From: an uncultured Eubacteriales bacterium
Lineage (GTDB): Bacteria; Bacillota; Clostridia; Oscillospirales; QAMX01
Length of the DNA stretch: 64,000 nucleotides
Assembly (NCBI GenBank): GCA_934546935.1
Contig: CAKTEH010000001.1
Coordinates: 205,332 to 269,331, forward strand
Direction: 5' to 3'
The notes below the pieces were generated by a model. The model searched no databases, was not told the DNA's origin, and worked only from the letters and a program-made list of their open reading frames with translations. Below, piece by piece: positions 8,268 through 24,679 of this stretch; position 1 is the stretch's first letter, and the number at the start of each line of letters is the position of its first letter. The position numbers were made by a program, and so were the translations under genes.

Positions 8268-11200
8268 TTAAAGCATAGCAGCGGGGATAGAACTGGAAAT
8301 GCGGTTTTCCGCTGGGTTTTGCCCGGAAGGGGCGTCTTGCGGGCAGGCGTTTTTTATGTTTTTGTCCGCGGCGACAGAGAAGAGGCTGCGCAGGCGGATC
8401 TTTACGGCGCCCATGTTGGAAATCTCATCGATTTTGATCTGGGTATAGATTTTGCCTGCATTTTCCAGAATAGACCGGGTTTCATCCGACGTGATTGCGT
8501 CGAGCCCGCAGCCAAAGGAAACAAGCTGGACAAGATTGACGTCCGGGCCCTGCTGGGCGACGAATTTCGCCGCGGCATAAAGCCTGGCGTGATATGTCCA
8601 TTGGTTACGCACGGATACGGGGAATTTCTCTACCTGTGCGCTGACGCTGTCTTCACTGACAACGACGGCGCCAAGCTGGCAGAGCAGTTCGTCAATGCCA
8701 TGGTTAACCTCGGGATCCAAATGATAGGGCCGTCCGGCCAGAACGATAACGGGAAGCTGCTTTTTGCGAGCGGCTGAAAGGTACTGCGCGCCTGTACGGC
8801 GTATGTCATCCAGATATGCGTCGTAAGCTGCATAAGCTGCTTTGGCGGCATTTTGGATTTCCTTGAGCGGCCGCGCAGGGAAATATTGATCCAGAATCTG
8901 TTTACAGCGCGCAGGGAAACGGCGGCGGGCATGCAGGCTGATGAAATCACAGATAAAGACAGTTTCCTTCAACGCACGCATATTCGCGCGAATCACCTGC
9001 GGGTAATAGGCAACGACTGGGCAGTTGAAATGCTGGTCCCCGAGATGCTCGTCGATATTATAACTCATATCCGGGTAAAAGATCGCATCGACGTTTTCGT
9101 TAAGCAACGCCTGGATATGCCCGTGCATGAGCTTGGCCGGGTAGCAGACCGTATCCGAGGGGATGGTGGCCTGGCCCGCCAGGTAGAGCTGGCGGCTGGA
9201 AACCGGGGAGACTGCGACATTAAACCCAAGGGCGTCAAAAAAGGTATACCAGAAGGGCAGGAGCTCATAAAAGTTCAACCCCATTGGCAGGCCGATGGTC
9301 AGCCTGCCTGGGATATGCTTGTTCTCTTTATATTTTGCCAATAATGCGTTTTTATAAGCAAAAAGATTAAAGTGTTCCCGGGCCTGCGGCAGCTTCAGGG
9401 GTTTATCACAGCGGTTTCCCGCTATATAGCGGTCTTTTCCGCCAAAGGTGTTGAGTGTCAGGCGGCAGTGGTTGCTGCATCCGGAACAGGTAAATGCGTG
9501 TGTTTCGTGCCGGAAGCTGTGCAAAGCTTGTGCGTCCAGCAGGGTACTGCGGCTATGCGAGGCACTGTGTTCCAGCGCATAAAGCGCTGCGCCGTATGCG
9601 CCCATCAAAGCTGCATAGCGCGGCCGGATAACCTCGCGGCCGGTTTCCTGCTCGAATGCACGCAGGACCGCGTCATTTAAAAATGTGCCGCCCTGGACGA
9701 CGATATGCTCCCCAAGCGCCGAGGTGTCTGCACAGCGGATGACCTTGTACAGCGCGTTTTTGACAACGCTGATGGACAGCCCCGCAGAGATACAGCCGAC
9801 GCTTGCGCCGTCTTTCTGGGCCTGTTTGACGGAACTGTTCATAAATACCGTGCAGCGTGAACCTAGGTCCACAGGCTTTTCAGCAAATAAACCAAGCTTT
9901 GAGAACGAGTCAATGTCATAGCCCAACGCAGCGGCAAAGGTCTGCAAAAAGGACCCGCAGCCGGAAGAACAGGCTTCATTGAGGAAAATGTTGTCAATTG
10001 CGCCGTTTTTTATCTGGAAGCACTTGATATCCTGTCCGCCGATGTCAAGGATGAAATCCACATCCGGCCGGAATTTCTTTGCAGCGGTATAATGCGCGAT
10101 GGTCTCAACGATGCCGAAATCCGCATGGAAGGCACAGCGTATGATATCCTCGCCGTAACCGGTTACCGCGCATGCACGGATATGGATATCCGGAAAATCC
10201 CGGTAAAGCTTTTCCAGATAATCCCGGACAAGCGGGACGGGGTTTGCATGGTTCGAGCTGTAAAAAGGCCGGAAAATATTACCGTCCCGGTCACAAAGCA
10301 GGAGCTTGACGGTTGTTGAACCTGCATCGATGCCGAGGAACATTTCCCCGTGCGGGATGTCGATTTCGCGGATTCCTGCGGAGGCCTGTTCGTGCCTTTT
10401 GCAGAAGGCTGCATATTGTGCTTCATCGGTAAACAGCCGTGTGCACCCTGCGTAGCTTTCATGCGGTGTGTAGCCGAGAATCTGTCCGGCAAGCGTCTCC
10501 AGATCAACCCCTGCGCCCTGCGCACTGGCGGCATAGGCTGCGCCCAGGGCGACAAAGTACAGGGAGTTTTCCGGGCAGATGCCCTGCGTACCCAGCGCAT
10601 CGTCAAAACTCGCACGCAGCTGCGGCAGGAAGGTCAGCGGCCCGCCGAGATACAGGATCCGTCCGGCAACTTCCCGTCCCTGTGCAAGGCCGGAAATGGT
10701 TTGGTTGACAACTGCATAGAAAATACTCGCGGCGACGTCCTCGCGACGTGCGCCCTGGTTCAAAAGGGGCTGCACGTCTGATTTTGCAAATACCCCGCAG
10801 CGCGACGCGATGGTATAGATTTTCTCATGCCCTGAGGCAAGCGCATCCATTGCATCGGGCGTGACATCCATCAAAGATGCCATCTGATCGATAAATGCAC
10901 CCGTGCCTCCGGCACAGGTGCCATTCATCCGCACCTCGAGACCGCCGCTCAAAAACAGGATTTTTGCATCTTCTCCGCCAAGTTCGATTACCACGTCGGT
11001 CTGCGGCGCAAGATATCCGACGGCGAGACGCGTAGCATAAACCTCCTGGACAAATGGGATGGAGAATTCACTGGCCATGCCCATCCCGGCAGATCCGGCG
11101 ACAGATACCGCCATCGGTTCGCCGGGGAAGCGCGCGGCAACATCGCGCAGCAGCTGCGCTGTCTGCACGAGGATTTTTGATAAGTGCCGTGCATAGCTTG

Positions 11201-11279
11201 TGTAAAGAATGGTATTGTTTTCATCGAGTACGACGCATTTGAGTGTCGTGGAGCCAACGTCAAGCCCGAGTTTTTTCAT
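8268..11279 (-). CDS. fusion of two HgdC/BcrAD/BadFG-type ATPase (activase) modules with a C-terminal DUF2229/HGD-D-like domain
   Basis: Two ASKHA phosphate-1 motifs (LGLDVGSTTLK, LGIDAGSTTVK). Two cluster-ligand motifs (SRCGVFAKSD, GSRCTVFMNSS). A Cys-rich linker (FTCSGCSNHC). About 400 aa of C-terminal domain. Confidence 0.85.
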   Translation of the reverse strand: MKKLGLDVGSTTLKCVVLDENNTILYTSYARHLSKILVQTAQLLRDVAARFPGEPMAVSVAGSAGMGMASEFSIPFVQEVYATRLAVGYLAPQTDVVIELGGEDAKILFLSGGLEVRMNGTCAGGTGAFIDQMASLMDVTPDAMDALASGHEKIYTIASRCGVFAKSDVQPLLNQGARREDVAASIFYAVVNQTISGLAQGREVAGRILYLGGPLTFLPQLRASFDDALGTQGICPENSLYFVALGAAYAASAQGAGVDLETLAGQILGYTPHESYAGCTRLFTDEAQYAAFCKRHEQASAGIREIDIPHGEMFLGIDAGSTTVKLLLCDRDGNIFRPFYSSNHANPVPLVRDYLEKLYRDFPDIHIRACAVTGYGEDIIRCAFHADFGIVETIAHYTAAKKFRPDVDFILDIGGQDIKCFQIKNGAIDNIFLNEACSSGCGSFLQTFAAALGYDIDSFSKLGLFAEKPVDLGSRCTVFMNSSVKQAQKDGASVGCISAGLSISVVKNALYKVIRCADTSALGEHIVVQGGTFLNDAVLRAFEQETGREVIRPRYAALMGAYGAALYALEHSASHSRSTLLDAQALHSFRHETHAFTCSGCSNHCRLTLNTFGGKDRYIAGNRCDKPLKLPQAREHFNLFAYKNALLAKYKENKHIPGRLTIGLPMGLNFYELLPFWYTFFDALGFNVAVSPVSSRQLYLAGQATIPSDTVCYPAKLMHGHIQALLNENVDAIFYPDMSYNIDEHLGDQHFNCPVVAYYPQVIRANMRALKETVFICDFISLHARRRFPARCKQILDQYFPARPLKEIQNAAKAAYAAYDAYLDDIRRTGAQYLSAARKKQLPVIVLAGRPYHLDPEVNHGIDELLCQLGAVVVSEDSVSAQVEKFPVSVRNQWTYHARLYAAAKFVAQQGPDVNLVQLVSFGCGLDAITSDETRSILENAGKIYTQIKIDEISNMGAVKIRLRSLFSVAADKNIKNACPQDAPSGQNPAENRISSSIPAAML

Positions 11280-12519
11280 GGTTCGCCTGTTCCTCCTTTG
11301 CGATGGCCAGCATCAGCTTAATCCGGTTTTCCTGGTTGACGCGCGAAGCCCCCGGGTCATAGTCAATCGGGAAAATGTTGGCCTGTGGATAGCGCAACCG
11401 GAGGGTACGGATAACGCCCTTTCCGACAATATGGTTTGGCAGGCAACCAAAAGGCTGCGCGCAAATGATGTTGGTATACCCTTTTTCAATCAATTCGGCT
11501 GTTTCGCCGGGAAGGAGCCAACCCTCTCCCATTTTTACGCCGCGGTCAATGACGGCGTCTGAAAGCGATTTGAGCTTTTCAAACGGGGCAGGCGCTGCAA
11601 ATTCCGGGTAAGGCGCCAGCGCATCAAGCATCGCCCTTTCCAGCCTGCGTGCCATTGCCTCGGCGATATGGCCCGCCCTGCGCACAATGCGGCTGCCGCC
11701 ATAGTAGCGGTAATCCGTGTCCATATTGGCAAAACAGTATTGTAAAAATCCCAATACGCCGGGGATCATATATTCGCAACCTTGGGAAGCAAGGAATTTT
11801 TCCAGTCCGTTGTTGCCAAAAGAAGAATATTTGACATAAATTTCGCCGACAATGCCGACTTTTACAAGGCTGCGGGCAACTTTTGGGATCTCATGGAAAT
11901 CCCGCACCATCGCCTGGAGGTTTTTGCGCATGCTCGCGTTCGTCAAGCCGCGATGATGGTGGAACTGTTCGGTCAGCTGTCGCGTCCATTTCTGCACCAG
12001 CGCCTGCGTCTGCCCTTGCTCCTTTTCATAGGGCATGCATTGATTTTTTAAAAGCAAAAGCATGTCGCCGTATACCAGCGCGCGTATGCCCATTAAAAGC
12101 ATAACCGGCGTTAAATGGAAACCGGAGTAATGCTCGAGCCCTGAGAAGCTTATGGAAATCACAGGGACGAAACCAAGTCCCATGTTCTTCAGCGCGCGGC
12201 GCAGAAGCCAGATATAATTGGAAGCCCGGCATCCGCCGCCGGTCTGGAACATGATGAGCGCGACCTTATGTACATCATAATCCCCGCATTGCAGCGCATA
12301 AAGCTGCTGGCCCAGGGAACAGATGGCCGGATAACATATATCATTGTGGAGATATTTCAGACCCGTATCGATTACCTGTTTGCCTTCATAATGCAGTACC
12401 TCGAAATGGTAGCCGTACATTTCAAAGATTCCGCGCAAAAGCTCCATGTGCGTGGGAAAAATATCGGGGCAAAGGATCGTATAGTCTTTTTTTATTTTCT
12501 TTGTAAAATCTTGCGGCAT
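11260..12519 (-). CDS. 2-hydroxyacyl-CoA dehydratase D-component-like / activase-related protein
   Basis: Motifs MFQTGGGCRASNY and AQPFGCLPNH are typical of this family. ATG at 12519 follows AAGGAAA. The stop overlaps the start of the activase fusion by 20 nt. Confidence 0.7.
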   Translation of the reverse strand: MPQDFTKKIKKDYTILCPDIFPTHMELLRGIFEMYGYHFEVLHYEGKQVIDTGLKYLHNDICYPAICSLGQQLYALQCGDYDVHKVALIMFQTGGGCRASNYIWLLRRALKNMGLGFVPVISISFSGLEHYSGFHLTPVMLLMGIRALVYGDMLLLLKNQCMPYEKEQGQTQALVQKWTRQLTEQFHHHRGLTNASMRKNLQAMVRDFHEIPKVARSLVKVGIVGEIYVKYSSFGNNGLEKFLASQGCEYMIPGVLGFLQYCFANMDTDYRYYGGSRIVRRAGHIAEAMARRLERAMLDALAPYPEFAAPAPFEKLKSLSDAVIDRGVKMGEGWLLPGETAELIEKGYTNIICAQPFGCLPNHIVGKGVIRTLRLRYPQANIFPIDYDPGASRVNQENRIKLMLAIAKEEQANHEKTRA

Positions 12520-13033
12520 GGGCAGTTTTCCTTTAAGATCAGATTTCAGTTGGCGGGTATCTGCTGGTAGGGGCTGTGCGGGGCAGCTGGGAGTGCATGA
12601 AGTGTTGGGATCCTGTTTGCTTTTTGCTTTATTTCCATATGTAAACCTGTTTTTCCCGATAGAGCGGCATTGTGTGAAACGCAATCCCGTGTTTGCAAAT
12701 GCTTCCAGGGAAAAACCCCTGATGCATTATTCATAGCTTTTGTATAGTTATATTATAACACAAAATCGTAAAAAAGTCGAATCCTGTCGAATCGTGGGTT
12801 TTGATTTTCTTTTCATAGAAAAATGGATTTTCTGGTGGATGACGCAGGAAATTCAGTTTTAAATCCGTTTATGATTGGGTTTTCTTCTCGAATCCGGAGG
12901 GACGCTAAGATTACGTAAAATATATTTGAGAATGGATTCATATAAATTTAACATATCTTTTCCGCAGGGTGCAGAGGAAAAAATTTCGTATAAAATCCCA
13001 GGCGTTCAGCAAAATAAGCGCGAGGTGATCAGA

Positions 13034-14939: not shown

Positions 14940-15169
14940 ATACACACCTCAGATCATATTTTTTAGCTTGCAGATATGTCTGTTTCTATTATACGAAATT
15001 GCCGCGCTTTTTCAAGCTTTTTGTCGGAAGTGCTTTTCAGGACGGCCCAGACAGGGGCGGACATAAAGGGCGCATATGTACTACATCCCCGGCATGCGCA
15101 CTGTGAAATTGGCATTTCTCATCCAATATTATGTGCACATTCAGGCCCATCCGGCTAAATTTGTATACG

Positions 15170-15192
15170 TATATTTGGCATTGCCAAATATA
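15170..15192. promoter_or_regulatory. perfect 11-1-11 palindrome TATATTTGGCA-T-TGCCAAATATA, candidate operator
   Basis: Read directly from the sequence. It lies 43 nt upstream of the GTG start of the XRE regulator. Confidence 0.45.
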
Positions 15193-15234
15193 AAAAGCAA
15201 GCTTCTCCATACAATACAATGGGGAGGGACTGCT

Positions 15235-15477
15235 GTGAATATTAGAAAGCTTGCGCTGGGCGACCGGAATCTTGTCGGCGCCCGGGTGACACAGTTACGG
15301 GCAGCGCAGGGGATGAAACAGGTGGAGCTGCTTGCAAAGCTCCAGGTTGCCGGGATTGATATTGGTACGTCTGCTTTGTCCCTGCTGGAAGGGCAGAGAC
15401 GTCCGGTCACAGATAAAGAACTGAAAGCGTTGACAGATATTTTCGATGTTTCTGCGGACTGGCTATTGGGCCGATAA
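15235..15477 (+). CDS. XRE-family helix-turn-helix transcriptional regulator (80 aa)
   Basis: HTH_3 pattern LVGARVTQLRAAQGMKQVELLAKLQVAG. GTG at 15235 follows GGGGAGGG. Confidence 0.75.
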   Translation: MNIRKLALGDRNLVGARVTQLRAAQGMKQVELLAKLQVAGIDIGTSALSLLEGQRRPVTDKELKALTDIFDVSADWLLGR

Positions 15478-15523: not shown

Positions 15524-15573
15524 GCAGCAAAAAATGCATCCGGTTATTTTGGGCCGGTTGCATTTTTTGCTGC
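15524..15573. terminator. bidirectional terminator between the XRE gene and vanT
   Basis: 15-bp perfect stem GCAGCAAAAAATGCA / TGCATTTTTTGCTGC. Confidence 0.65.
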
Positions 15574-15614: not shown

Positions 15615-17729
15615 TCACCGGCATATACGCGCACAGCGCGCGCCGATCCGGCTGAGCAGTTCATTGGGGATGCTTGCGCACTGCGATGCCATTGTATAGG
15701 CGCAGATTTCCCGTCCTCCGCTGCGTCCGATCACAACGGCTTCTGAACCGACGGAAACGGATGGGATATCGCTTATGTCCACAATGGTCTGATCCATGCA
15801 TATCCAGCCCAGAATAGGCGCTTTTTCCCCGTCGAGCAGAACATAGCCTTTCCCGTTGGATAACTCGCGCGGCAGCCCGTCGGCATATCCGATAGAAAGG
15901 ACGGCGATGCGGGTTTGCCGCACGGCGGTGAAACGCCGGCCATAACCCGCGCTTTCCCCCGGCTGCAGGGTTTTGAGCGCAGCTACCCGCGCTTTCCAGC
16001 ATAATACCGGCATAAGCCCTGCTGCTCGTGCCTCGCTGCAGGCGCCATACAGCGCGAGGCCGGGGCGCACAGCGTCGCCATAAAATTCGGATCCGCTGAG
16101 GATTCCTGTGCTGGCCAGCAGATGGGATTTCGGCACAGGGATGCCATGCTGTGCAAGCAATTCCCGTACCGAGCGGAATGCCTGCTGTTGGGTTTGACAG
16201 TATGTTTTTCCCATAGGCGTGGAGGAATCGGTGCATAGATGGGAGTAGACGCCGGTTATGCGCAGATTGCGGAGCGTGAAAAGCTCCAGAATGCTTTCGG
16301 AATCTTCAGCGGGAAGCCCTATGCGGTGCATGCCTGTGTCAATTGCAATATGGACACGCAGGCGATGGCCGTAAGCCTGAAGTGCATGTGCATAATCCCG
16401 GTCAAGCACTGTCTGCGTCAGCCTCCAGCGCCGCAGCAAAGGGAAGTCAGACGGATTCGTATATCCAAGAATGAGGATTTCACCGCCTATGCCGCGGCGG
16501 CGCAGCTCGACGCCTTCGCTGAGGCAGGCAACACAAAAGCTGTCTATGCCGCAGCCGCGCAGGATATGCGCGCACAGTACAGCCCCGTGCCCATACGCGT
16601 CGGCCTTTAAAACCGGCATCAGCGCGCAGCGATCCGGAAGCTGTGCCCGCAGGCATTGTATGTTATGCCGCAGGGCCTGCGCGTCGATTTCTACCCAAGC
16701 GCGTCCTTCTGCATCCGGTTTTTTCCGTATCCGGGCTTCTGTTCTTGAGAATATCCAGGCAGCGGCGAGTGATCCGATAAAAATGCAGCAAAAATAAATC
16801 AGACTGTTGTCCGGCAGCAACGCCTGTGCGTGCAGCAGTTTCGCTGCGGCACGCAGGACGACAATGCCAAGCGGATGCAGAATGTATATCCAGGCGCTGA
16901 TCCGCCGTAACTTGGGAGCGGGCTGTACAGGCAGGCAAAGCAGCATACGCATCAGAAAAAAGGATGCTGCCGGCAGCAGCAGATACATGCTGTCATGCCG
17001 CGGCCAGCCCAGCGCGCGCAGCACCAGCGCTTCTGCCGCCATACCGGCCAGGCAGGCGAGAAATGCGGCCAGATTGGCCGTATGCGTCCATTTATGTTTA
17101 AAGCGGGGCAGGCAAGCCCCAAGGGCCAGCAACAGCGGCGTAAAAAACAGGCCGTTTCGCGTATAGGAAAAAATCCGGAACATCCCATTGTAAATGCTTT
17201 CCAAGGCCGGCGCTTTTGCCAGCAGCCCGTAATAGCTGTCGCCGCCCAGCCCGGCCATATATAGCAGCGCACATATTGCCAGCAGCGCCGGTGGGCGCAG
17301 GACCCGGGCAAGCGCGCAGACCAGCGATGCTCCCAGCATCAGCGCCGGGAAATACCACAGATGGTAATAGGTGCCGTCGAAGGCCAGAAACCTGAATGCA
17401 TCCAGCGCGGAGAGGTTTTCATAGTGCCCTGCATATATGGATACAGGCAGATATATGAATGCAGCGGCAAGATATAGCACCGCGGAGCTTTTCAGCAGCC
17501 GGTAAAGCCCCTGCTGATCCGGGTCATGGCCGTTCAGGATCGGAGAAAGGGAAAAATAGCCGGTGACCATTAAAAAGAAAGGTACGGCCAAACGGGCCAG
17601 TACACTTGTTAGCAGAAAATCTGCATCTGCGCTGAAGCTGGACAGCGGGCCTGTATGAATGGCTACAACCAAAGCCGCCGCTACAGGCCTTGCCCAGTCC
17701 AGCGCGCCAGTCTGCTGCCGCCCGTTCAT
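15615..17729 (-). CDS. vanT: membrane-bound serine/alanine racemase VanT (acyltransferase-3 membrane domain fused to a PLP racemase)
   Basis: About 330 N-terminal residues with 10-11 TM helices (ALVVAIHTGP..), then an alanine-racemase fold with the PLP lysine motif VLKADAYGHG. ATG at 17729 follows GGGGAG and overlaps the vanXY stop (ATGA). Confidence 0.85.
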   Translation of the reverse strand: MNGRQQTGALDWARPVAAALVVAIHTGPLSSFSADADFLLTSVLARLAVPFFLMVTGYFSLSPILNGHDPDQQGLYRLLKSSAVLYLAAAFIYLPVSIYAGHYENLSALDAFRFLAFDGTYYHLWYFPALMLGASLVCALARVLRPPALLAICALLYMAGLGGDSYYGLLAKAPALESIYNGMFRIFSYTRNGLFFTPLLLALGACLPRFKHKWTHTANLAAFLACLAGMAAEALVLRALGWPRHDSMYLLLPAASFFLMRMLLCLPVQPAPKLRRISAWIYILHPLGIVVLRAAAKLLHAQALLPDNSLIYFCCIFIGSLAAAWIFSRTEARIRKKPDAEGRAWVEIDAQALRHNIQCLRAQLPDRCALMPVLKADAYGHGAVLCAHILRGCGIDSFCVACLSEGVELRRRGIGGEILILGYTNPSDFPLLRRWRLTQTVLDRDYAHALQAYGHRLRVHIAIDTGMHRIGLPAEDSESILELFTLRNLRITGVYSHLCTDSSTPMGKTYCQTQQQAFRSVRELLAQHGIPVPKSHLLASTGILSGSEFYGDAVRPGLALYGACSEARAAGLMPVLCWKARVAALKTLQPGESAGYGRRFTAVRQTRIAVLSIGYADGLPRELSNGKGYVLLDGEKAPILGWICMDQTIVDISDIPSVSVGSEAVVIGRSGGREICAYTMASQCASIPNELLSRIGARCARICR

Positions 17730-18478
17730 ATGGACGCTCCCCATTGTGTGACGATAAAGCCGCCGCAGTTGTCTCCGGAAATGGTATAGGTAAGGGTATT
17801 GTAGATTTGCAGGGGCATGTCCTCCTGCGCCGGAAGGTAAAACAGCCCCAGATCCCTGCCGGCGGTAAAGTGATGATAGGGGTGGACAGGCGTATAGTTC
17901 CGGATAAAACGGACATATTCTTCCAGCGTCATTTCAAGCTCAGTCATAATCTGGGCATGCGGCATGCCGACAAAGCGGAAATGCCAGGGTTCATGCGCAA
18001 TTCCGGTAATGGCTTCCTTCCCCTCGGGATAACGTTCGATAAAGCCGTAACGCGCGGCATGCCTGCGGAATTGACCGCAGATGCCGGTATAGGGGAATTC
18101 CGGCCGGATAAAGTCGATATGTTCACAATTAAGCCCCAGATCGATGGCAAGCCCCGTCTGATGTTCGCTGCAGCCGGGTTTTGCGACGTACTGTACAGTG
18201 AAATCCGGCCCGTTTTCCGTCATGGATTTCTCCCAGATCGCTTCCTGTTCCCGCAGGCTTCTCCAGGCGCTGACAGGGACAATTTCTCCCCACCCGCCGA
18301 TTTTATCCATCAGCGCGTCAAGCAGCACCAGGGCTGTGCGCTGCAAAAGCATATCCGTTTGTCCGCATAGGGGAGAAAGCGGCGCGCGCGGCTGAAGCTG
18401 AAGCGGGTGATGTGGATTAACAAGGATCAGGTTCCCTTCATAAACTGCGCTTTTGGACAGGTTCAAGCTGTGCATCAT
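17726..18478 (-). CDS. vanXY: D,D-dipeptidase/D,D-carboxypeptidase VanXY (M15 family)
   Basis: Zn-ligand and catalytic motifs SEHQTGLAIDL and EPWHFRF. The start overlaps the ligase stop (ATGA). Confidence 0.85.
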   Translation of the reverse strand: MMHSLNLSKSAVYEGNLILVNPHHPLQLQPRAPLSPLCGQTDMLLQRTALVLLDALMDKIGGWGEIVPVSAWRSLREQEAIWEKSMTENGPDFTVQYVAKPGCSEHQTGLAIDLGLNCEHIDFIRPEFPYTGICGQFRRHAARYGFIERYPEGKEAITGIAHEPWHFRFVGMPHAQIMTELEMTLEEYVRFIRNYTPVHPYHHFTAGRDLGLFYLPAQEDMPLQIYNTLTYTISGDNCGGFIVTQWGASI

Positions 18479-19524
18479 GTGCGCACCGCCAGTTCAATTA
18501 CAAACCGGACGATCTGTGGGAAGGAAAACCCAGCCGCTTTCAGCATCGCGGGGAAGCGGCTGTGCGCAGTGAAGCCGGGGATCGTGTTGACCTCGTTAAA
18601 CAGAATCTGCCCGTCCGGTGTCAGGAACATGTCCACACGGGCGAAACCGCGGCATCCCAGTGCACGGTAAACCGTTTCGGCAGTTTCTTTAATACGTTCG
18701 GCTGTTTTGGCGTCAATGCGGGCAGGAACATGGATTTTAGAACTTTTGAGCGTGTATTTTTCCGAAAAATCAAAAAAACCCTGAGAAAGCTCAATTTCGT
18801 CAACTTCCCCAATATACAGCTGCTCGTTTCCCATCACCGCACAACCGACTTCAAATCCCGCAACCGCCTGTTCTAAGATCAGTACATCGTCATATTGCCG
18901 GGCAAGTACTGCGGCGCTGTCGAGCTGGGTGCGTTGTGTAACCCGTGTAATGCCAAAGGAGGAGCCGGCTTTTAAAGGCTTGACAAACAGCGGATATCCA
19001 AGCTTGTGTGCCTGTGCATGCAAAAATTCAGCGCTCGCGCCAGCCGGGACGATGCTGCCGGCAGGGGAAGGAATGCCTGCCTGTGCGGCAAGACGGTGGG
19101 CGCGGTCTTTATCCATACATAATGCTGAAGCCAGTGTCCCGCAGCCGACCAGCGGGATCCCCGCCAGCTCGCACAACCCCTGTACGCTTCCATCCTCACC
19201 GTTTTGCCCATGAAGTACGGGAAAGACCGCATCAATATAAATGCGCTGGATTTCCTGTCCCTGGAAGCAGAGCAGTGCCCGTTCCCCCCGGTTTACGGAA
19301 AGCATGGCAGGAACACAGTCTCCCGATTCCCGCCATGTATCGGTGCCGATAGCGGAAAATGCACCGCGGTAAAAGTACCACTGCCCGTCCGGCGTTATGC
19401 CGACAGGGACAGGCGTAAAGCGTTGCGGATCCATCGCCTCCAATACGGCCTGGGCCGAGCGGAGGGAAACCGGGTATTCCGGAGATGCACCGCCAAAGAG
19501 GACAACAATTTTTAAATTCGCCAT
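18475..19524 (-). CDS. vanG: D-alanine--D-serine ligase (VanG/VanC-class ATP-grasp ligase)
   Basis: MANLKIVVLFGGASPEY.. N-terminus. ATP-grasp core. FFDFSEKY..VPA and NEVNTIPGFT motifs. Genetically linked to vanXY and vanT. ATG at 19524 follows GGGAG. The 120-codon upstream extension of the ORF overlaps vanS and is not coding. Confidence 0.8.
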   Translation of the reverse strand: MANLKIVVLFGGASPEYPVSLRSAQAVLEAMDPQRFTPVPVGITPDGQWYFYRGAFSAIGTDTWRESGDCVPAMLSVNRGERALLCFQGQEIQRIYIDAVFPVLHGQNGEDGSVQGLCELAGIPLVGCGTLASALCMDKDRAHRLAAQAGIPSPAGSIVPAGASAEFLHAQAHKLGYPLFVKPLKAGSSFGITRVTQRTQLDSAAVLARQYDDVLILEQAVAGFEVGCAVMGNEQLYIGEVDEIELSQGFFDFSEKYTLKSSKIHVPARIDAKTAERIKETAETVYRALGCRGFARVDMFLTPDGQILFNEVNTIPGFTAHSRFPAMLKAAGFSFPQIVRFVIELAVRT

Positions 19525-19565
19525 AAAACAAGAACTCCCGATTTTTAAAGTATGACCGGACACGG

Positions 19566-19605
19566 AAAAACCCCGCCCGGCTATATCAGCATAGCATGGG
19601 CGGGG
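19566..19605 (-). terminator. strong intrinsic terminator between vanS and the ligase gene
   Basis: Minus-strand RNA CCCCGCCC-AT-GCTAT-GCTG-ATAGC-C-GGGCGGGG followed by UUUUU. Confidence 0.7.
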
Positions 19606-19657
19606 ACGGTATGTTTGCGTTCTTTCTTGTAAAAAACCTGTTTTTTCCTGCGTAAAA

Positions 19658-20764
19658 TCATACGAATTTCTTACGGAGAAGCGGGAACCGGACTGTGAAG
19701 GCAATGGTATCGTCCTCGCTTTCCGCGTAGATACTGCCGCCGTGGAGCTCAAGGATCTGCCGTGCGATGGCAAGCCCAAGCCCTGCGCCGCCTGTGCGGG
19801 TCGAGCGGGAAGCGTCCAGGCGGTAAAACTGCTCGAAAATGCGTGAAAGCTTTTCTTTTGGGATCGTGTTTCCATGATTGACAAAGCGGATCACGGCAAA
19901 ATCCTTTCCAAGGGTCTGCTCGGTTTTCCCGGAAATGGAAATGCAGCAGCCTGGGAAGCTGTAACTGACAGCATTGCGCAGAAGATTGTCAAACACGCGT
20001 TCGAGTTTGTCCGCGTCGCATTCCGCCTCCAGCACAGGCGGAAGGTCAATCCGGCAGGACAGCTCCTTTTCCGCAAGCATGGGTTGGAATTCAAAGCATA
20101 ACTGCTCTAAAAGACGGGTCAGGTTGATTTTGCTGTATTCAAGCACAATATGGGAAAGGTTGAATCGGGTAATTTCGAAGAACTCGTCGATCAGATCATT
20201 CAGACGCTCCGCGTTCTTCAGCGTGACGTCGAGATAACGGGCCTGCTGGGCTGCCGGGATTTCCGGTTCGTCGCGCAGCAGGGTCAGATATCCGGTAATG
20301 GACGCAATCGGCGTTTTCAAATCGTGTGCCAGGTAAACGACAAGATCATTTTTTCGCTGCTCAGCTTCCCGGGCCGCTGCTTCGTTGGCCCGGATGCGCG
20401 TATCCGCCTGCTGAAGCATGAACTGGGTTTCCTGTATAAGGGAGGGAAGGCGAAGCTCGGCGGGCTGGGATGATCCGATTTGTGCGCATGCGTCTGAAAC
20501 TGCTGCCAGCGCGCAGATCAGCTGCCACCATAAAGCGATAACAATAACAAGCACGCCGGCAGCAAAGCAGATCAGGACCAAAAGGATGATATAATCGCCC
20601 ATCCAACGCAGCGCCGCGTTGTTGCGCAGGGTAGGGAATGCTGAGCAGATAAAAAAGCAGATGACTGCGCTGACGATCAAAAACCCAAGCCAACATAATG
20701 CAGAAATAAAAAACCGGACAAGAACGCGACGGAGGAGCCGCATACGGAATTCCCGCTTATTCAA
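19658..20764 (-). CDS. vanS: sensor histidine kinase VanS
   Basis: Two N-terminal TM segments. H-box LAHDLKTPIASITGY. N, G1 and G2 boxes (NLLRNAVSY, GGAGLGLAIA). Overlaps vanR by 8 nt. Confidence 0.85.
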   Translation of the reverse strand: MNKREFRMRLLRRVLVRFFISALCWLGFLIVSAVICFFICSAFPTLRNNAALRWMGDYIILLVLICFAAGVLVIVIALWWQLICALAAVSDACAQIGSSQPAELRLPSLIQETQFMLQQADTRIRANEAAAREAEQRKNDLVVYLAHDLKTPIASITGYLTLLRDEPEIPAAQQARYLDVTLKNAERLNDLIDEFFEITRFNLSHIVLEYSKINLTRLLEQLCFEFQPMLAEKELSCRIDLPPVLEAECDADKLERVFDNLLRNAVSYSFPGCCISISGKTEQTLGKDFAVIRFVNHGNTIPKEKLSRIFEQFYRLDASRSTRTGGAGLGLAIARQILELHGGSIYAESEDDTIAFTVRFPLLRKKFV

Positions 20765-21470
20765 CTTTATAGCCTACCCCCCAAACCGTTTTTATAAATC
20801 TCGGCCTGCGCGGCGGCTCATGCAGCTTTTCGCGGAGCCGGCCGATATGCGCCATGACGGTATTGTTATTGTCTAAGAATTTTTCTCCCCAAACGGCTTC
20901 GAAAAGCGCTTCGGAAGAGACGACCTTTCCCTGATGCAGGCAAAGGTACCACAAGATGGAAAACTCAATCGGCGTCAGGGGAATACTTTCTCCAAACAGG
21001 ACGCAGGTATGCATATCCCGGTTGATGGTCAGGCCCCGGATATCCAGCTCGTCCGGCTCTTGCGCTGTGGCCGGGGGGACGGGACATTGTGTGTGTTTGT
21101 TATAGCGTATATAGCGGCGCAGCTGGGTGCGTACGCGCGCAACCACCTCGAGTGGATTAAAAGGCTTGGTAATATAATCATCTGCGCCAATGGTCAGCCC
21201 CGCGATTTTATCGCCGTCCCCGACCCGGGCGGTGAGCATGATTACCGGGTAAAAATGCTGCTCGCGGATTTTTGCGCACAGTGCAAAACCATCGATATCC
21301 GGCAGCATTACGTCCAGAATGGCCAGATCCAGCGGCGTATTCTGGATACAGCGCAGGGCCTCGGCGCCGGTATAAAATTTGTAAACACAAAAACCGTCGT
21401 TTTTCAGGTAAACCTCCAAAAGGTCGGCAATATCCTGTTCATCGTCGACGATCAATATCTTTTCATTCAT
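20757..21470 (-). CDS. vanR: OmpR-family response regulator VanR
   Basis: Receiver domain (KILIVDDEQDIADLL.. DLAILDVMLPDIDG) plus a winged-helix C-terminus (IKTVWGVGYKVE). ATG at 21470 follows AAAGGA. Confidence 0.9.
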   Translation of the reverse strand: MNEKILIVDDEQDIADLLEVYLKNDGFCVYKFYTGAEALRCIQNTPLDLAILDVMLPDIDGFALCAKIREQHFYPVIMLTARVGDGDKIAGLTIGADDYITKPFNPLEVVARVRTQLRRYIRYNKHTQCPVPPATAQEPDELDIRGLTINRDMHTCVLFGESIPLTPIEFSILWYLCLHQGKVVSSEALFEAVWGEKFLDNNNTVMAHIGRLREKLHEPPRRPRFIKTVWGVGYKVE

Positions 21471-21552: not shown

Positions 21553-21561
21553 ATTATAGCA
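21553..21561 (-). promoter_or_regulatory. extended -10 element TGCTATAAT, candidate vanRS promoter
   Basis: The minus strand reads TGCTATAAT about 85 nt upstream of the vanR ATG. The -35 (TTTCCT) is weak. Confidence 0.35.
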
Positions 21562-21620: not shown

Positions 21621-22028
21621 TTAAGCTTGTTTCCACTCTTTTTCCATAATATAATTTGCAAGCAGAACGCTATACCGTTCCACCTGCTGCTGTCGGAGGA
21701 GGCGATAACCTCTTTTTTCAAAAAAGCTTCGCTGTAATGGAAACATGGCTGAAAATCCGGCCCTGCATGGCCTGCTCAAGCCGGCTGCAGATGGCGGTGG
21801 CAGCGCGCTTTTCCTCTGATAATCCCGATGGACATATAGACGGCGTAACCATTTGCGTCAATGTCCCCCGAAGCCGGCAATTCTGCTTTTCAAGGTCAAT
21901 CCGTCCGGCGTCCCACGCACCCAATTGTGCCTGCGTATAATCTTTGCATTGACTGTGTAGACGGTATCATCATAGAACAACTGCGCCATTTTCGCACAGA
22001 AAGACGGCTGATAGACCCGGATGGTCAT
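21621..22028 (-). pseudogene. GNAT-family N-acetyltransferase pseudogene (at least three frame changes)
   Basis: GNAT pieces lie in three different frames: MTIRVYQPSFCAKMAQLFYDDTVYTVNAK, DYTQAQLGAWDAGRIDLE, IAGFG, LRRLYVHRDYQRK, AATAICSRLEQAMQGR..SITAK, FFEKRGYRLLRQQQVERYSVLLANYIMEK. Confidence 0.55.
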
Positions 22029-22259
22029 ATTGCCCTCCTGCTGCTTTTGTAATTTTCTATTCTCATGTTATCACAGGCTGGCCTTTCCTGCAACAAGAGG
22101 CGTGGAAGATTGCCCAAGCCGCCGGAGCGGGGAAGGCCGGCTGGCATAGGAGGGGCCCGCCAAGGCCGCTTTTGCAGCCGGGCGCTTTCCTGTGCGGAAA
22201 ACCTGTACTGCTTTTCCTCTGCGCCGGGTATAATAAGGCAGAAAAGAAAGGAGGAGGCC

Positions 22260-23108
22260 ATGCGTCGGAAGGAATTTGCCAGGGATCTTATATGGGAGCT
22301 TGCCGGAAGCACGCTTATTGCCGCCGCTATGTACAATTTTGCACTGCATGCCGCATTCCCTATGACCGGTTTTACAGGGATTTCCATGATTTTATACCGG
22401 CTTTTTGGCCTGCCGATCGGACTGACGACTATTGTTATGAATATTCCGCTTGCTTTCATATGTTACAGGCTGATTGGACGGACATTTTTGTTGAAGTCTT
22501 TGCGCTGCATGTTGATTTCCAGCCTGATGATTGATTACCTGGCGCCGCTTTTTCCTGTTTACAACGGAGAACGGATGTTGGCTGCGCTGGCGACAGGCGT
22601 GCTTGGAGGGACCGGATATGCGTTGATTTATATGCGCCAGTCCTCTACAGGGGGATCTGATTTTGTTATTATGGCTGTACGCGCCGTTTATCCGCATCTG
22701 AAGCTGAGCGTTCTTGCCTTTGCCAATGAAATCGTGGTTATCCTGGCAGGAGGGATTATCTTCCGGGATATGGATGGGATTTTATATGGGCTGATTATCA
22801 ACTTCCTGTTTGCCGCGATGATAGACAGGGTGATGTGCGGCGCCAATGCAGGAAAAGTCGGACTTGTTGTGACGCGCAAGGCCCCTGAGGTCTGTGCAGA
22901 AATTGACCGGCAAACCGGGCGGGGTTCGACAATTTTGTATGGCGAGGGCGCTTACAGCAGGCAGGAGAAGGCAGTCGTTTTGGTGGCGTGCAGCAGCCGC
23001 GAGATGTACCGGATCGAGAAAGCGGTTAAAAAGGAGGATCCGGAAAGCTTTATGATCGTTATGAATTCCAGCGAGGTGCATGGCGAAGGGTTTCGCGTTG
23101 TGCGCTGA
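22260..23108 (+). CDS. YitT-family membrane protein (DUF161 repeats plus C-terminal DUF2179)
   Basis: The N-terminal pattern ..GSTLIAAAMYNFALHAAFPMTGFTGISMILYRLFGLPIG is typical of YitT. ATG at 22260 follows AAAGGAGGAGG. TATAAT at 22229-22234. Confidence 0.8.
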   Translation: MRRKEFARDLIWELAGSTLIAAAMYNFALHAAFPMTGFTGISMILYRLFGLPIGLTTIVMNIPLAFICYRLIGRTFLLKSLRCMLISSLMIDYLAPLFPVYNGERMLAALATGVLGGTGYALIYMRQSSTGGSDFVIMAVRAVYPHLKLSVLAFANEIVVILAGGIIFRDMDGILYGLIINFLFAAMIDRVMCGANAGKVGLVVTRKAPEVCAEIDRQTGRGSTILYGEGAYSRQEKAVVLVACSSREMYRIEKAVKKEDPESFMIVMNSSEVHGEGFRVVR

Positions 23109-23160
23109 AACGCGAAACAGCCGGGGCGCTGCATGGCGCTCCGGCTGTTAAAAAATGGGT

Positions 23161-23742
23161 TTATAGCTGCCCTCTCCGTCTTTTCCACATTGTCTGCGCG
23201 GTTTCACGGAACTGCATGTCATTTTCTTCCTGTATGCCGGACAATTCGTCCAGAAAAGTAACGACCTGTGCAAGGCTTCCTTCGATGAGGTTATTCCCGG
23301 CAGCCCTGTTGGGAAGCTGTGTTTTTGCATCGATATGGAAGGCGTGGATCAGCGTATCGATCGCTATGATCTGTTCCTGCGGCGTTTTTAGCGCAAGGTA
23401 GCGCCGGTAAAAGTCTGAAAAACAGGCTGCCGCATTGCCCGGTCGGAGATCCTGATGCCGCCAGCTTTGGTGAAACTCTTTGTACAGCAGCGAAAAGCCA
23501 CAGGCCGGACAGGAAACGGTGCTGTCATCTCTGGCGGCAGATGTAAAAGCAAGCTTCATCCGGCAGACGGGACAGTAGAATTCTCCCCGGCTGACCATCA
23601 GGATCGCTTCGCAGCGCAGCCATAAGGCGGCTCCTGTTTCCTGAAGCGCATCAATATCCAGCATGCCTGCCGCAGATGAATCATACAGGCGGCGAAGCAG
23701 GCTGGGCTGAAGCTTTGGAGGCCACTTAAGCTTATTCGCCAT
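23161..23742 (-). CDS. hypothetical protein with a CxxC...CxxC zinc ribbon (193 aa)
   Basis: ATG at 23742 follows AAGGAAG. CPVC(16)CPAC motif. No family recognised. Confidence 0.5.
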   Translation of the reverse strand: MANKLKWPPKLQPSLLRRLYDSSAAGMLDIDALQETGAALWLRCEAILMVSRGEFYCPVCRMKLAFTSAARDDSTVSCPACGFSLLYKEFHQSWRHQDLRPGNAAACFSDFYRRYLALKTPQEQIIAIDTLIHAFHIDAKTQLPNRAAGNNLIEGSLAQVVTFLDELSGIQEENDMQFRETAQTMWKRRRGQL

Positions 23743-23759
23743 GTAAACCGTCTTCCTTT

Positions 23760-24227
23760 CTATGCATTCTGTATGCTTTTGATGGCTATCGGGAGCAGGA
23801 TATCCGCGCGGCAGAGATCTTTTTCCGTATCCCAAAGAATATAGCGCTCAATTGCCGGGGCACATTTGCAGTATTTGCTTTGTGGAAGGAACTCGGTGTT
23901 GATGTATTTCCAGGTTTCCCCTAACACGTTTTTTGAGATCTTCCCGTATGCCTGGAATTCAAGCCAGGTGTGCGGCGCATAGGTATAGCTGTCAAGTCCC
24001 GGGATATCCTCGCCCTCATATTCCACGGCGCACATGTAGTCATTGCTTCCATTTTCCAAAAAGCCGAAACACAGCCCAAGGTCGTAAACCCTGCCGCTGA
24101 TGGATTCAATCTGCCGCAAATATTGTGGGTTGGATTTAACAATAGCCCAGGTCCCGCCGCCATATGGTGTGGTACGCCGGATACCGATAACTTTAAACGC
24201 CCCTTTTTCTGTGATCTTATACTCCAT
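23760..24227 (-). CDS. GyrI-like small-molecule-binding domain protein (stand-alone effector-binding domain)
   Basis: Pattern ...FKVIGIRRTT......W..........G..YGLC....... and a C-terminal ERY....D.....DI.IPI, as in the Rob/BmrR/SbmC ligand domain. ATG at 24227 follows AAAGGAG. Confidence 0.65.
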   Translation of the reverse strand: MEYKITEKGAFKVIGIRRTTPYGGGTWAIVKSNPQYLRQIESISGRVYDLGLCFGFLENGSNDYMCAVEYEGEDIPGLDSYTYAPHTWLEFQAYGKISKNVLGETWKYINTEFLPQSKYCKCAPAIERYILWDTEKDLCRADILLPIAIKSIQNA

Positions 24228-24679
24228 ACGGCCTGCTCCTTTTATGTTAAGTAGAAATTGATGGCAACAGTAAACGGCCATCGCAGTATCTTCAGCCCGC
24301 ATTGCCATAATAGTGGGAGCATGTCAATGGCTTCTGCAAGACGATCTTTGCTATAGCGGGTTGCCAAGCTGATCCATCCCATCCAAGGACTTACAGGCCT
24401 TTCCGTCTGCTTCTCCATATAGACATGGCAGTACCTTGCTGCTCTTCCTCCGCTTTTTTCGCGCCAGGCGCCGCCATTTTGATAATTGGAAACAGAAATT
24501 TTGAAAAATCCTGGCCGGGTGCTGGAACCTTGTATAAAGATATGTTTATTTTAGCACAGAATATTGGCTTTTTCCATAAAATTAGTTGCAAAATTTTTTA
24601 TAGCTTGTATAATCTTTATTAGACTAGCCCTGTTTCCATTTATAGTAGAAAAGAGAAAAAGAGAAAGGCGGAAATAACA

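Follow-up and report, generated by a model that had tools for sequence, protein, structure and literature searches.

A very probably functional, vertically inherited vanG-type operon in an uncultured clostridium, and a possible nesting of its predicted resistance promoter in the vanS terminator

The 64,000-nucleotide stretch of DNA analysed here (hereafter, the window: positions 205,332 to 269,331 of contig CAKTEH010000001.1, from an uncultured Eubacteriales bacterium) carries five minus-strand genes at 15615-21470, namely vanR, vanS, a D-alanine--D-serine ligase gene, vanXY and vanT, which very probably constitute a working vanG-type operon, chromosomal and inherited vertically, in a spore-forming, uncultured member of the Clostridia. 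The conserved arrangement that places the predicted resistance promoter inside a terminator-like hairpin behind vanS is the only part of it that may be new.

The five genes and their products

An earlier note on this DNA, made from the letters alone, had described five co-directional genes forming a complete D-Ala-D-Ser glycopeptide-resistance set. All five open reading frames (ORFs) were found intact and at the coordinates claimed, and the motifs quoted there (LAHDLKTPIASITGY, FFDFSEKY, NEVNTIPGFT, SEHQTGLAIDL, EPWHFRF and VLKADAYGHG) are all present in the translations:

20757-21470, minus strand: vanR, OmpR-family response regulator, 237 amino acids (aa)
19658-20743, minus strand: vanS, two-transmembrane HisKA sensor kinase, ATG start, 361 aa
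19658-20764, minus strand: vanS from an alternative TTG start, 368 aa
18475-19524, minus strand: vanG-type D-alanine--D-serine ligase, 349 aa, N-terminus MANLKIV
17726-18478, minus strand: vanXY, cytoplasmic M15 D,D-dipeptidase/carboxypeptidase, 250 aa
15615-17729, minus strand: vanT, Acyl_transf_3 membrane domain fused to a pyridoxal-phosphate (PLP) serine/alanine racemase, 704 aa

Gene callers reproduce the lengths of 237, 361, 349, 250 and 704 aa on independent metagenome copies of the locus, where the 361-aa form of VanS is the one called. The ligase stop and the vanXY start overlap by 4 bp, and the vanXY stop and the vanT ATG overlap as ATGA, with a GGGGAG ribosome-binding site before the 704-aa start. 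The Pfam architectures agree with the domain make-up originally claimed (Response_reg and Trans_reg_C in VanR; HisKA and HATPase_c in VanS; Dala_Dala_lig_N/C in the ligase; VanY, of the M15 family, in VanXY; Acyl_transf_3 and Ala_racemase_N/C in VanT), and chance matches are not a concern with E-values of 1e-73 to 1e-168 against the van-specific models. VanR exceeds the cut-off of the NCBIfam model VanR-ABDEGLN (NF033117; 379 bits, cut-off 350) and is 88% identical to its homologue in L001, a related locus from an uncultured Clostridia metagenome-assembled genome (MAG).

Regarding the ligase, the NCBIfam VanG model (NF000091) gives 520.4 bits over a cut-off of 495. The other scores are 368 bits for the generic D-Ala-D-Ser model (cut-off 520), 359 for the best Ddl model (cut-off 262), 352 for the D-Ala-D-lactate (D-Lac) model (cut-off 550) and 278-323 for the VanC, VanE, VanL and VanN models (cut-offs 650-750), and the best match in the Protein Data Bank (PDB) is the VanG structure 4FU0 (E = 1e-122). 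A bootstrapped neighbour-joining tree was built with VanA, VanB, VanM, a VanI-like ligase, VanC1, two VanG-like ligases and the Ddl enzymes of S. aureus, E. faecalis, Listeria and Salmonella (DdlB) as references, which came from plasmid or misfiled bacterial records carrying annotation and from the 4FU0 alignment. In this tree the window ligase pairs with that of L001 (100% support), E. faecalis VanG joins them in one clade (65%), this clade is sister to the D-Lac (VanA-type) ligases in a joint group without VanC1 (99%), and housekeeping Ddl is split off from the window ligase with 88-100% bootstrap. Identity amounts to 54% with E. faecalis VanG, 44-47% with VanA, VanB, VanM, the VanI-like ligase and VanC1 (45% for VanC1), and 34-37% with Ddl.

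The aligned omega-loop columns, which read GFFDFSEKY with HSR further on, are of the type of VanG (GFFDYTEKY and HSR) and VanC1 (GFFDFEEKY and HSR), unlike those of VanA, VanB and VanM (G-I-F-R-I-H-Q-E and YSR) and those of Ddl (F-Y-D-Y-x-x-K-Y and S-L/M). In other words, the window ligase has Phe for the Ddl Tyr and Arg for the Ddl Leu or Met, and it is without the VanA-type His. These comparisons support its assignment as a VanG-clade, putatively D-Ala-D-Ser-forming ligase with a D-Ser-type loop. The phylogeny and loop inspection that the earlier note had proposed as checks therefore place the ligase on the side of VanG, away from Ddl, and the model score, the place in the tree and the loop type all tell against clustering with housekeeping enzymes, the outcome that would have counted against the note. 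A VanC/E/L/N-type cluster was rejected owing to the low VanC/E/L/N scores, a position outside the VanC1 branch and the order of genes, with the regulators first in the window.

The two remaining enzymes have their closest solved structures in the same family. VanXY matches VanXY_G (PDB 4F78, E = 2e-72) over its full length and shows no N-terminal membrane segment, and it keeps the zinc and catalytic motifs SxHxxGxAxD, as SEHQTGLAID, and ExxH, as EPWH (motifs after PMC3610138). VanT is best matched by VanT_G (PDB 4ECL, E = 7e-96); its catalytic domain passes the NCBIfam model vanT-G-Cterm (467.7 bits, cut-off 460), and the whole protein aligns end to end with the fused VanT-CELN model (559 bits, cut-off 900). 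In VanT_G, Lys376 and Tyr603 form the catalytic pair and Asn696, in place of alanine racemase Tyr354, is the key serine determinant, with Tyr543, Ser567 and Thr695 in a supporting hydrogen-bond network whose members individually have no effect on specificity (mBio 2015 VanT_G paper). The window protein, in the numbering of its 709-aa ORF, has the catalytic pair as K380 and Y601 and the serine-specifying Asn as N694, and it keeps Ser at the Ser567 position. Architecture, catalytic Lys/Tyr and Asn support a role of VanT as a membrane-bound serine racemase, in line with the earlier reading of this acyltransferase-3/PLP-racemase fusion as VanT.

The predicted resistance promoter and its hairpin

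The spacer between vanS and the ligase gene is 133 bp long. The following control elements are predicted there and upstream of vanR:

21553-21561, minus strand: predicted constitutive vanRS promoter, extended -10 TGCTATAAT (hexamer 21558-21553), read from the sequence
19642-19676, minus strand: three predicted VanR boxes with 11-bp phasing, straddling the last vanS codons and the stop
19588-19616, minus strand: predicted VanR-dependent resistance promoter, with -35-like AAACAT (19616-19611), 17-bp spacer and extended -10 TGCTATGCT (hexamer 19593-19588)
19566-19605, minus strand: terminator-like hairpin enclosing this -10, with arms CCCCGCCC (19605-19598) and GGGCGGGG (19578-19571), an inner stem and TTTTT at 19570-19566

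The reference for the VanR boxes is the DNase footprint of VanR_G from E. faecalis, which comprises three direct 12-bp repeats with the consensus (T/C)CGTANGAAA(T/A)T and protects -100 to -56 of the promoter P_YG, whose -35 is poor (AAAACA) and whose -10 reads TACAAT (PMC4405338). In the window, box 1 (CCGTAAGAAATT, 19676-19665), lying over the last vanS codons, matches this consensus exactly, followed by boxes 2 and 3 with two and three mismatches (TCGTATGATTTT and ACGCAGGAAAAA, respectively). The exact consensus occurs once in the 64 kb, with both strands searched, and that single match is at the vanS/ligase junction, the number expected by chance from base frequencies being about 0.1. If transcription started some 7 nt past the -10, the boxes would lie at about -95 to -62, in agreement with the published footprint.

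The geometry is also conserved. A genome scan found at least 553 confirmed relatives among species representatives, of which 80 loci were kept for the comparisons between related loci. Box 1 and the -10 motif TGnTAnnnT lie exactly 83 bp apart in the window and in 20 distinct related loci, and box 2 is 72 bp from the motif in 13 distinct related loci, the fixed spacing holding also for loci with vanW between vanS and the ligase. Furthermore, when the promoters of 23 loci are aligned, the invariant columns are precisely the T, G, T, A and T of TGnTAnnnT. A VanR-dependent promoter, with a layout resembling that of P_YG, is thereby predicted at the vanS/ligase junction. Regarding the vanRS promoter, its sequence ATGCTATAAT is conserved in L001 and no VanR box with two or fewer mismatches was found upstream of vanR, for which reason autoregulation through such a box was rejected; this fits the reported lack of VanR_G binding at its own regulatory promoter (PMC4405338).

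The -10 of the predicted resistance promoter lies within the hairpin, which folds as RNA with -24.9 kcal/mol (z = -3.1). All 24 promoter-anchored sequences, those of 23 related loci and of the window, have such a hairpin, with differing arm sequences. An explicit 15-pair helix placed on the alignment has 81% of its cells paired, as against 35-51% with slid partners; ten of the 15 pairs have changed on both sides, and the covariation score is above all 500 shuffles. Where the ligase gene is adjacent to vanS, a perfect-arm hairpin enclosing TGnTAnnnT occurs in 22 of 29 loci, a count that overstates independence as several of them are near-duplicates, and in one of 290 random segments of the same loci. 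Run automatically on the promoter alignment, RNAalifold gives a weak consensus of 10 pairs (-5 kcal/mol), since L001 and the window are off by one column. A generic promoter/terminator scan yielded nothing useful at the junction, being blind to a long-loop hairpin with its loop limit of 3-8 nt, and an Rfam search returned only a tRNA and no known RNA family within the cluster. The VanR_G footprinting paper, to which the literature comparison is confined, makes no mention of a hairpin at this promoter (PMC4405338). It is tentatively proposed, as a suggestion that may well not hold, that the vanS terminator and the VanR-dependent promoter form one nested module in clusters with enterococcal-type VanR boxes. 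Constitutive read-through from vanRS would then be terminated, since the -10 sits in the apical part of a GC-rich hairpin with a T-run behind it, and, if the proposal is true, the module would be a compact insulator holding a costly pathway tightly off.

Two groups of related loci show variants of this layout. In L003 (9111-9992), L005, L009, L011, L029, L040, L062, L066 and L069, a gene of about 0.9 kb stands between vanS and the ligase (vanW, PF04294, in L003), and the box, -10 and hairpin lie upstream of the inserted gene; the module would thus show where the resistance transcript begins, regardless of which gene comes first. In L006, L007, L020, L023, L026, L028, L034, L035, L037 and L058, which belong to a Flintibacter / Pseudoflavonifractor / Oscillospiraceae group with VanR about 55% identical, repeated TTAGGAAA-type boxes, and not CGTAAGAAA, are found upstream of the ligase, with the hairpin enclosing TG(C/A)TATGAT kept. 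This points to divergence of the sequence recognized by VanR under an unchanged promoter-in-terminator design.

Putting these elements together, vanR and vanS would be transcribed from the constitutive extended -10 promoter as a transcript ending at the strong hairpin and T-run just past vanS. VanS would sense the glycopeptide, the presumed inducer, or the ensuing cell-wall stress and phosphorylate VanR, which in this form would bind the three direct-repeat boxes across the vanS stop codon and activate the weak -35 / extended -10 promoter whose -10 is inside the vanS hairpin. Induced transcripts would begin in the 3' arm of the hairpin, and, because the 5' arm is missing from them, they would read on into the ligase, vanXY and vanT genes, translationally coupled via their ATGA overlaps. 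VanT would then presumably convert L-Ser into D-Ser at the membrane, the ligase would make D-Ala-D-Ser, and VanXY would remove D-Ala-D-Ala and possibly also the terminal D-Ala of pentapeptide precursors, so that peptidoglycan precursors would end in D-Ala-D-Ser, a poor binding target for vancomycin.

Related clusters and the expected phenotype

Clusters of this kind are widespread. A protein search returns thousands of relatives, many of them named "D-alanine--D-serine ligase VanG" by NCBI in MAGs of Lachnospiraceae and Oscillospiraceae, and the nearest species representative among the matches listed is L001, with a ligase identity of 76%, all others listed being at 62% or below. The order R-S-G-XY-T is found in 42 of the 80 loci (Oscillospiraceae, Lachnospiraceae and other Clostridia), 22 of which are as compact as the window, and no vanU, vanY or vanW lies between or beside the five genes of the window; with the like five genes of C. 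difficile, this upholds the earlier statement that such an order without those three genes has been described for clostridial vanG-like clusters. Those of gut clostridia (e.g., the L001 MAG, Flintibacter muris, Papillibacter cinnamivorans, Fumia xinanensis and Subdoligranulum variabile) share with the window the gene order and the module of VanR boxes, -10 and hairpin, from which the lineage of the window differs in having Thr and Pro at two positions of the VanT network. Apart from these, an Oscillospiraceae MAG (L012, 10001-10500) has, in the sequence extracted, a ligase frame ending after 166 codons, with no vanR or vanS seen nearby, which may be a pseudogene or an assembly error.

Three characterized systems provide a frame for comparison. 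The vanG operon of E. faecalis BM4518 (vanU-R-S / vanY-W-G-XY-T), whose VanG, VanXY and VanT are the enzymes of the closest solved structures, has the D-Ser loop type and the VanR-box consensus in common with the window, and in neither is there a VanR box at the regulatory promoter. It differs in that the window ligase is only 54% identical to its VanG and in that the window cluster sits on no integrative element and has no vanU, vanY or vanW; for these absences, and with no integrase among the scanned ORFs of the window, the enterococcal vanG subtype was rejected. Since VanU is absent, the graded "rheostat" control that depends on it (PMC4405338) is not expected here. The vanC operon of E. 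gallinarum (vanC1-vanXY_C-vanT_C-vanR_C-vanS_C) shares the chemistry, the fused membrane VanT, the ligase loop motif and the condition of a chromosomal intrinsic cluster, whereas its regulators come last, its VanXY_C is shorter and its VanC1 lies outside the clade of VanG and the VanA-type ligases. The vanG_Cd cluster of C. difficile, likened here by its published description, has the same five genes, is chromosomal and lacks vanU, vanY and vanW (PMC11326576). Its vanRS transcript is separate from that of vanG-vanXY-vanT, and the latter three genes respond to vancomycin and to vanS mutations (PMC11326576).

Several points weigh against a functional resistance operon of the VanG type. VanS has HK_VanS_ACDEFG as its best NCBIfam match with 342 bits, under the cut-off of 400, and VanXY remains below the curated cut-offs of the equivalog (203 bits, cut-off 250) and VanXY-G (246 bits, cut-off 500) models. 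Both miss them because they have diverged from the clinical alleles by which the cut-offs were set, and van models are still their top matches by a wide margin despite these scores. The hydrogen-bond network around Asn696 of VanT is changed at two of its four residues, with Thr at the Tyr543 position and Pro at that of Thr695, the latter a rare state found in 3 of 76 related loci. Asp243, Phe252 and Arg324 of VanG are said to be the residues of D-Ser selectivity, and it is our own alignment contrast that stands behind their use here. The -10 hexamer of the resistance promoter (TATGCT) is weak, and the start site is a predicted one. With no vanY, the removal of D-Ala from pentapeptides would have to rest on the carboxypeptidase activity of VanXY. 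Finally, the five-gene cluster of C. difficile is reported to be functional and yet to confer no resistance unless mutations in vanS or vanR make it constitutive (PMC8868222; PMC11326576).

This last point leads to the alternative that survives best, a serious possibility even though its likelihood is less than even: the operon is intact and inducible, but silent for the minimum inhibitory concentration (MIC) of vancomycin in its host, having been selected for something else, for example a graded envelope-stress response to natural lipid II binders of the gut, or tolerance. It concerns the phenotype alone and shares every molecular step with the functional operon proposed above. For C. difficile, the wording in the literature is that the cluster is "functional ... 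does not confer vancomycin resistance", and it is called "cryptic" unless constitutive (PMC8868222), and a vanS duplication in that species raises vanG expression 10- to 136-fold and the MIC only 2-fold (PMC11326576). The missing vanY points in the same direction, as does the wide spread of the cluster in commensal Clostridia that have never been under clinical selection. On the other side, purifying selection on all comparable van genes (see below) shows some benefit, and sequence cannot part resistance from tolerance. The earlier suggestion that the operon is "possibly cryptic" does not extend to decay, the genes being under purifying selection. The host lineage is a different one, and the phenotype of the C. 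difficile cluster, silent unless de-repressed, may or may not carry over. By analogy with D-Ala-D-Ser systems, an MIC shift would be expected to be low-level at most; unless the operon is de-repressed, there may be none, as is the case for wild-type C. difficile.

Chromosomal context and inheritance

Is the cluster a recent arrival? The genes around it in the 64 kb encode ClpB, a P-type ATPase, a CoA-enzyme activase, formate-tetrahydrofolate ligase (FTHFS), oxaloacetate decarboxylase, NAD synthase, UvrAB, QueA and SpoIID, among others, and no integrase, transposase or relaxase appears among the scanned ORFs of at least 150 aa. The GC content of the cluster, 0.53-0.57, equals that of its surroundings. 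No nucleotide match was found in 72,556 plasmids, the best plasmid proteins being 56% identical (a Subdoligranulum replicon), and no protein in phage records exceeds 39% identity, so that a plasmid or phage origin was rejected. In L001, as in the window, the cluster lies between genes for an amidase, a glucuronyl-esterase-like protein (GCE) and a hypothetical protein on one side and the FTHFS and BcrAD/DUF2229 activase genes on the other; in L098, whose ligase is 91% identical, FTHFS is immediately downstream. The identical ligase protein recurs in several metagenome samples, on contigs as long as 234 kb, with like neighbours of equal lengths where covered. These housekeeping flanks, the synteny with two related lineages and the lack of recombinase or transposase ORFs among those scanned bear out the chromosomal location given in the earlier note.

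Comparison with L098 (Nei-Gojobori method) gives ratios of nonsynonymous to synonymous substitution (dN/dS) of 0.056 for vanS, 0.059 for the ligase, 0.21 for vanXY, 0.18 for vanT and 0.046 for the flanking FTHFS, and the synonymous divergence (dS) of the van genes and FTHFS is alike, at 0.5-0.9. The shared flanks, the similar dS and the dN/dS of 0.06-0.21 argue that cluster and flanks have diverged together, which speaks against both a relic and a recent import; the cluster is old, chromosomal and under purifying selection.

These data leave little room for the other explanations. A recently acquired mobile element, or the remnant of a transposon or integrative and conjugative element, is highly improbable: vanG is carried on integrative elements in enterococci and streptococci (PMC4120198), and the cluster does have at its borders a GNAT gene in decay and small genes specific to the lineage (HTH, YitT and GyrI-like), but the want of mobility genes among the scanned ORFs, the matching GC, the absence of close plasmid or phage matches, the housekeeping flanks shared with L001, the FTHFS of L098 and the dS close to that of FTHFS all speak against it. 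Still more improbable is a housekeeping D-Ala-D-Ala ligase with an alanine racemase paralogue, placed beside a two-component system by accident. The ligase does pass the loose Ddl subfamily cut-off, VanT matches the generic alr model with 297 bits, and VanT enzymes keep alanine racemase activity (mBio 2015 VanT_G paper); nonetheless, the ligase scores far higher with VanG, groups with it in the tree and has the Phe and Arg that Ddl lacks, the racemase, fused to a membrane domain, has Asn for the Tyr conserved in alanine racemases, and there is a VanR box upstream. A decaying, non-functional relic, with the adjacent GNAT pseudogene and the faster evolution of vanXY and vanT relative to the flanking genes in its favour, is just as improbable in view of five full-length ORFs with coupled starts, intact catalytic residues, low dN/dS and an identical ligase protein across several independent metagenome samples, with neighbours equal in length where covered.

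Some neighbouring features deserve a description of their own. The GNAT acetyltransferase remnant (21636-22028, minus strand) directly precedes the vanR promoter on its upstream side; its frame is interrupted by a stop, about 15 codons are deleted and the centre is garbled, and its orthologue is intact in L001 (7394-7858, 154 aa, Acetyltransf_10). Beyond it, at 22065-24308, genes for a YitT/DUF2179 membrane protein and a GyrI-like effector-binding protein lie between the van cluster and the glucuronyl-esterase-like gene; this flank varies between lineages, since both genes are missing from the syntenic L001 locus. Downstream and convergent with vanT, a small helix-turn-helix (HTH) ORF of the XRE family (15076-15477, plus strand) has only generic HTH matches. 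The enterococcal vanG operon likewise encodes a small XRE protein, VanU; nothing ties this ORF to it, and a role as VanU analogue was rejected, as the ORF is absent from L001, L098 and all 80 related loci (E < 1e-10), with FTHFS directly following vanT in L001 and L098. Between the two convergent genes there is one further element:

15524-15573: 50-bp palindrome, GCAGCAAAAAATGCA...TGCATTTTTTGCTGC, with an inner CCGG hairpin and T-runs on either strand

The palindrome is a probable bidirectional terminator, and the terminator scan picked out the hairpin at its core (15540-15557). Further away, at 8268-12684 (minus strand), a 1003-aa CoA enzyme activase (BcrAD_BadFG and DUF2229) is followed by a 474-aa ORF without Pfam or NCBIfam match, a pair kept in L001 with 86-89% identity. 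As for the databases, the phage-collection matches H33-H40 (e.g., OR845010, OR846667 and OR847094), which bear Staphylococcus, Enterococcus or Listeria "phage" labels (UNVERIFIED_ORG), contain housekeeping ddl genes and have the look of contigs from bacterial chromosomes that were entered as phages.

Five-gene operons of the vanG type are well known and very common in clostridia, and the window adds a lineage to them: one more uncultured, probably gut, member of the Clostridia in a large natural reservoir of vanG-type operons, where the operon is an old, selected chromosomal trait and not a mobile element. For resistome surveys, such a "vanG" match marks an intrinsic commensal gene with little evident mobility. 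Furthermore, the exact VanR box, the fixed 83-bp geometry and the promoter nested in the vanS terminator offer a testable model of how these operons may be silenced and switched on.

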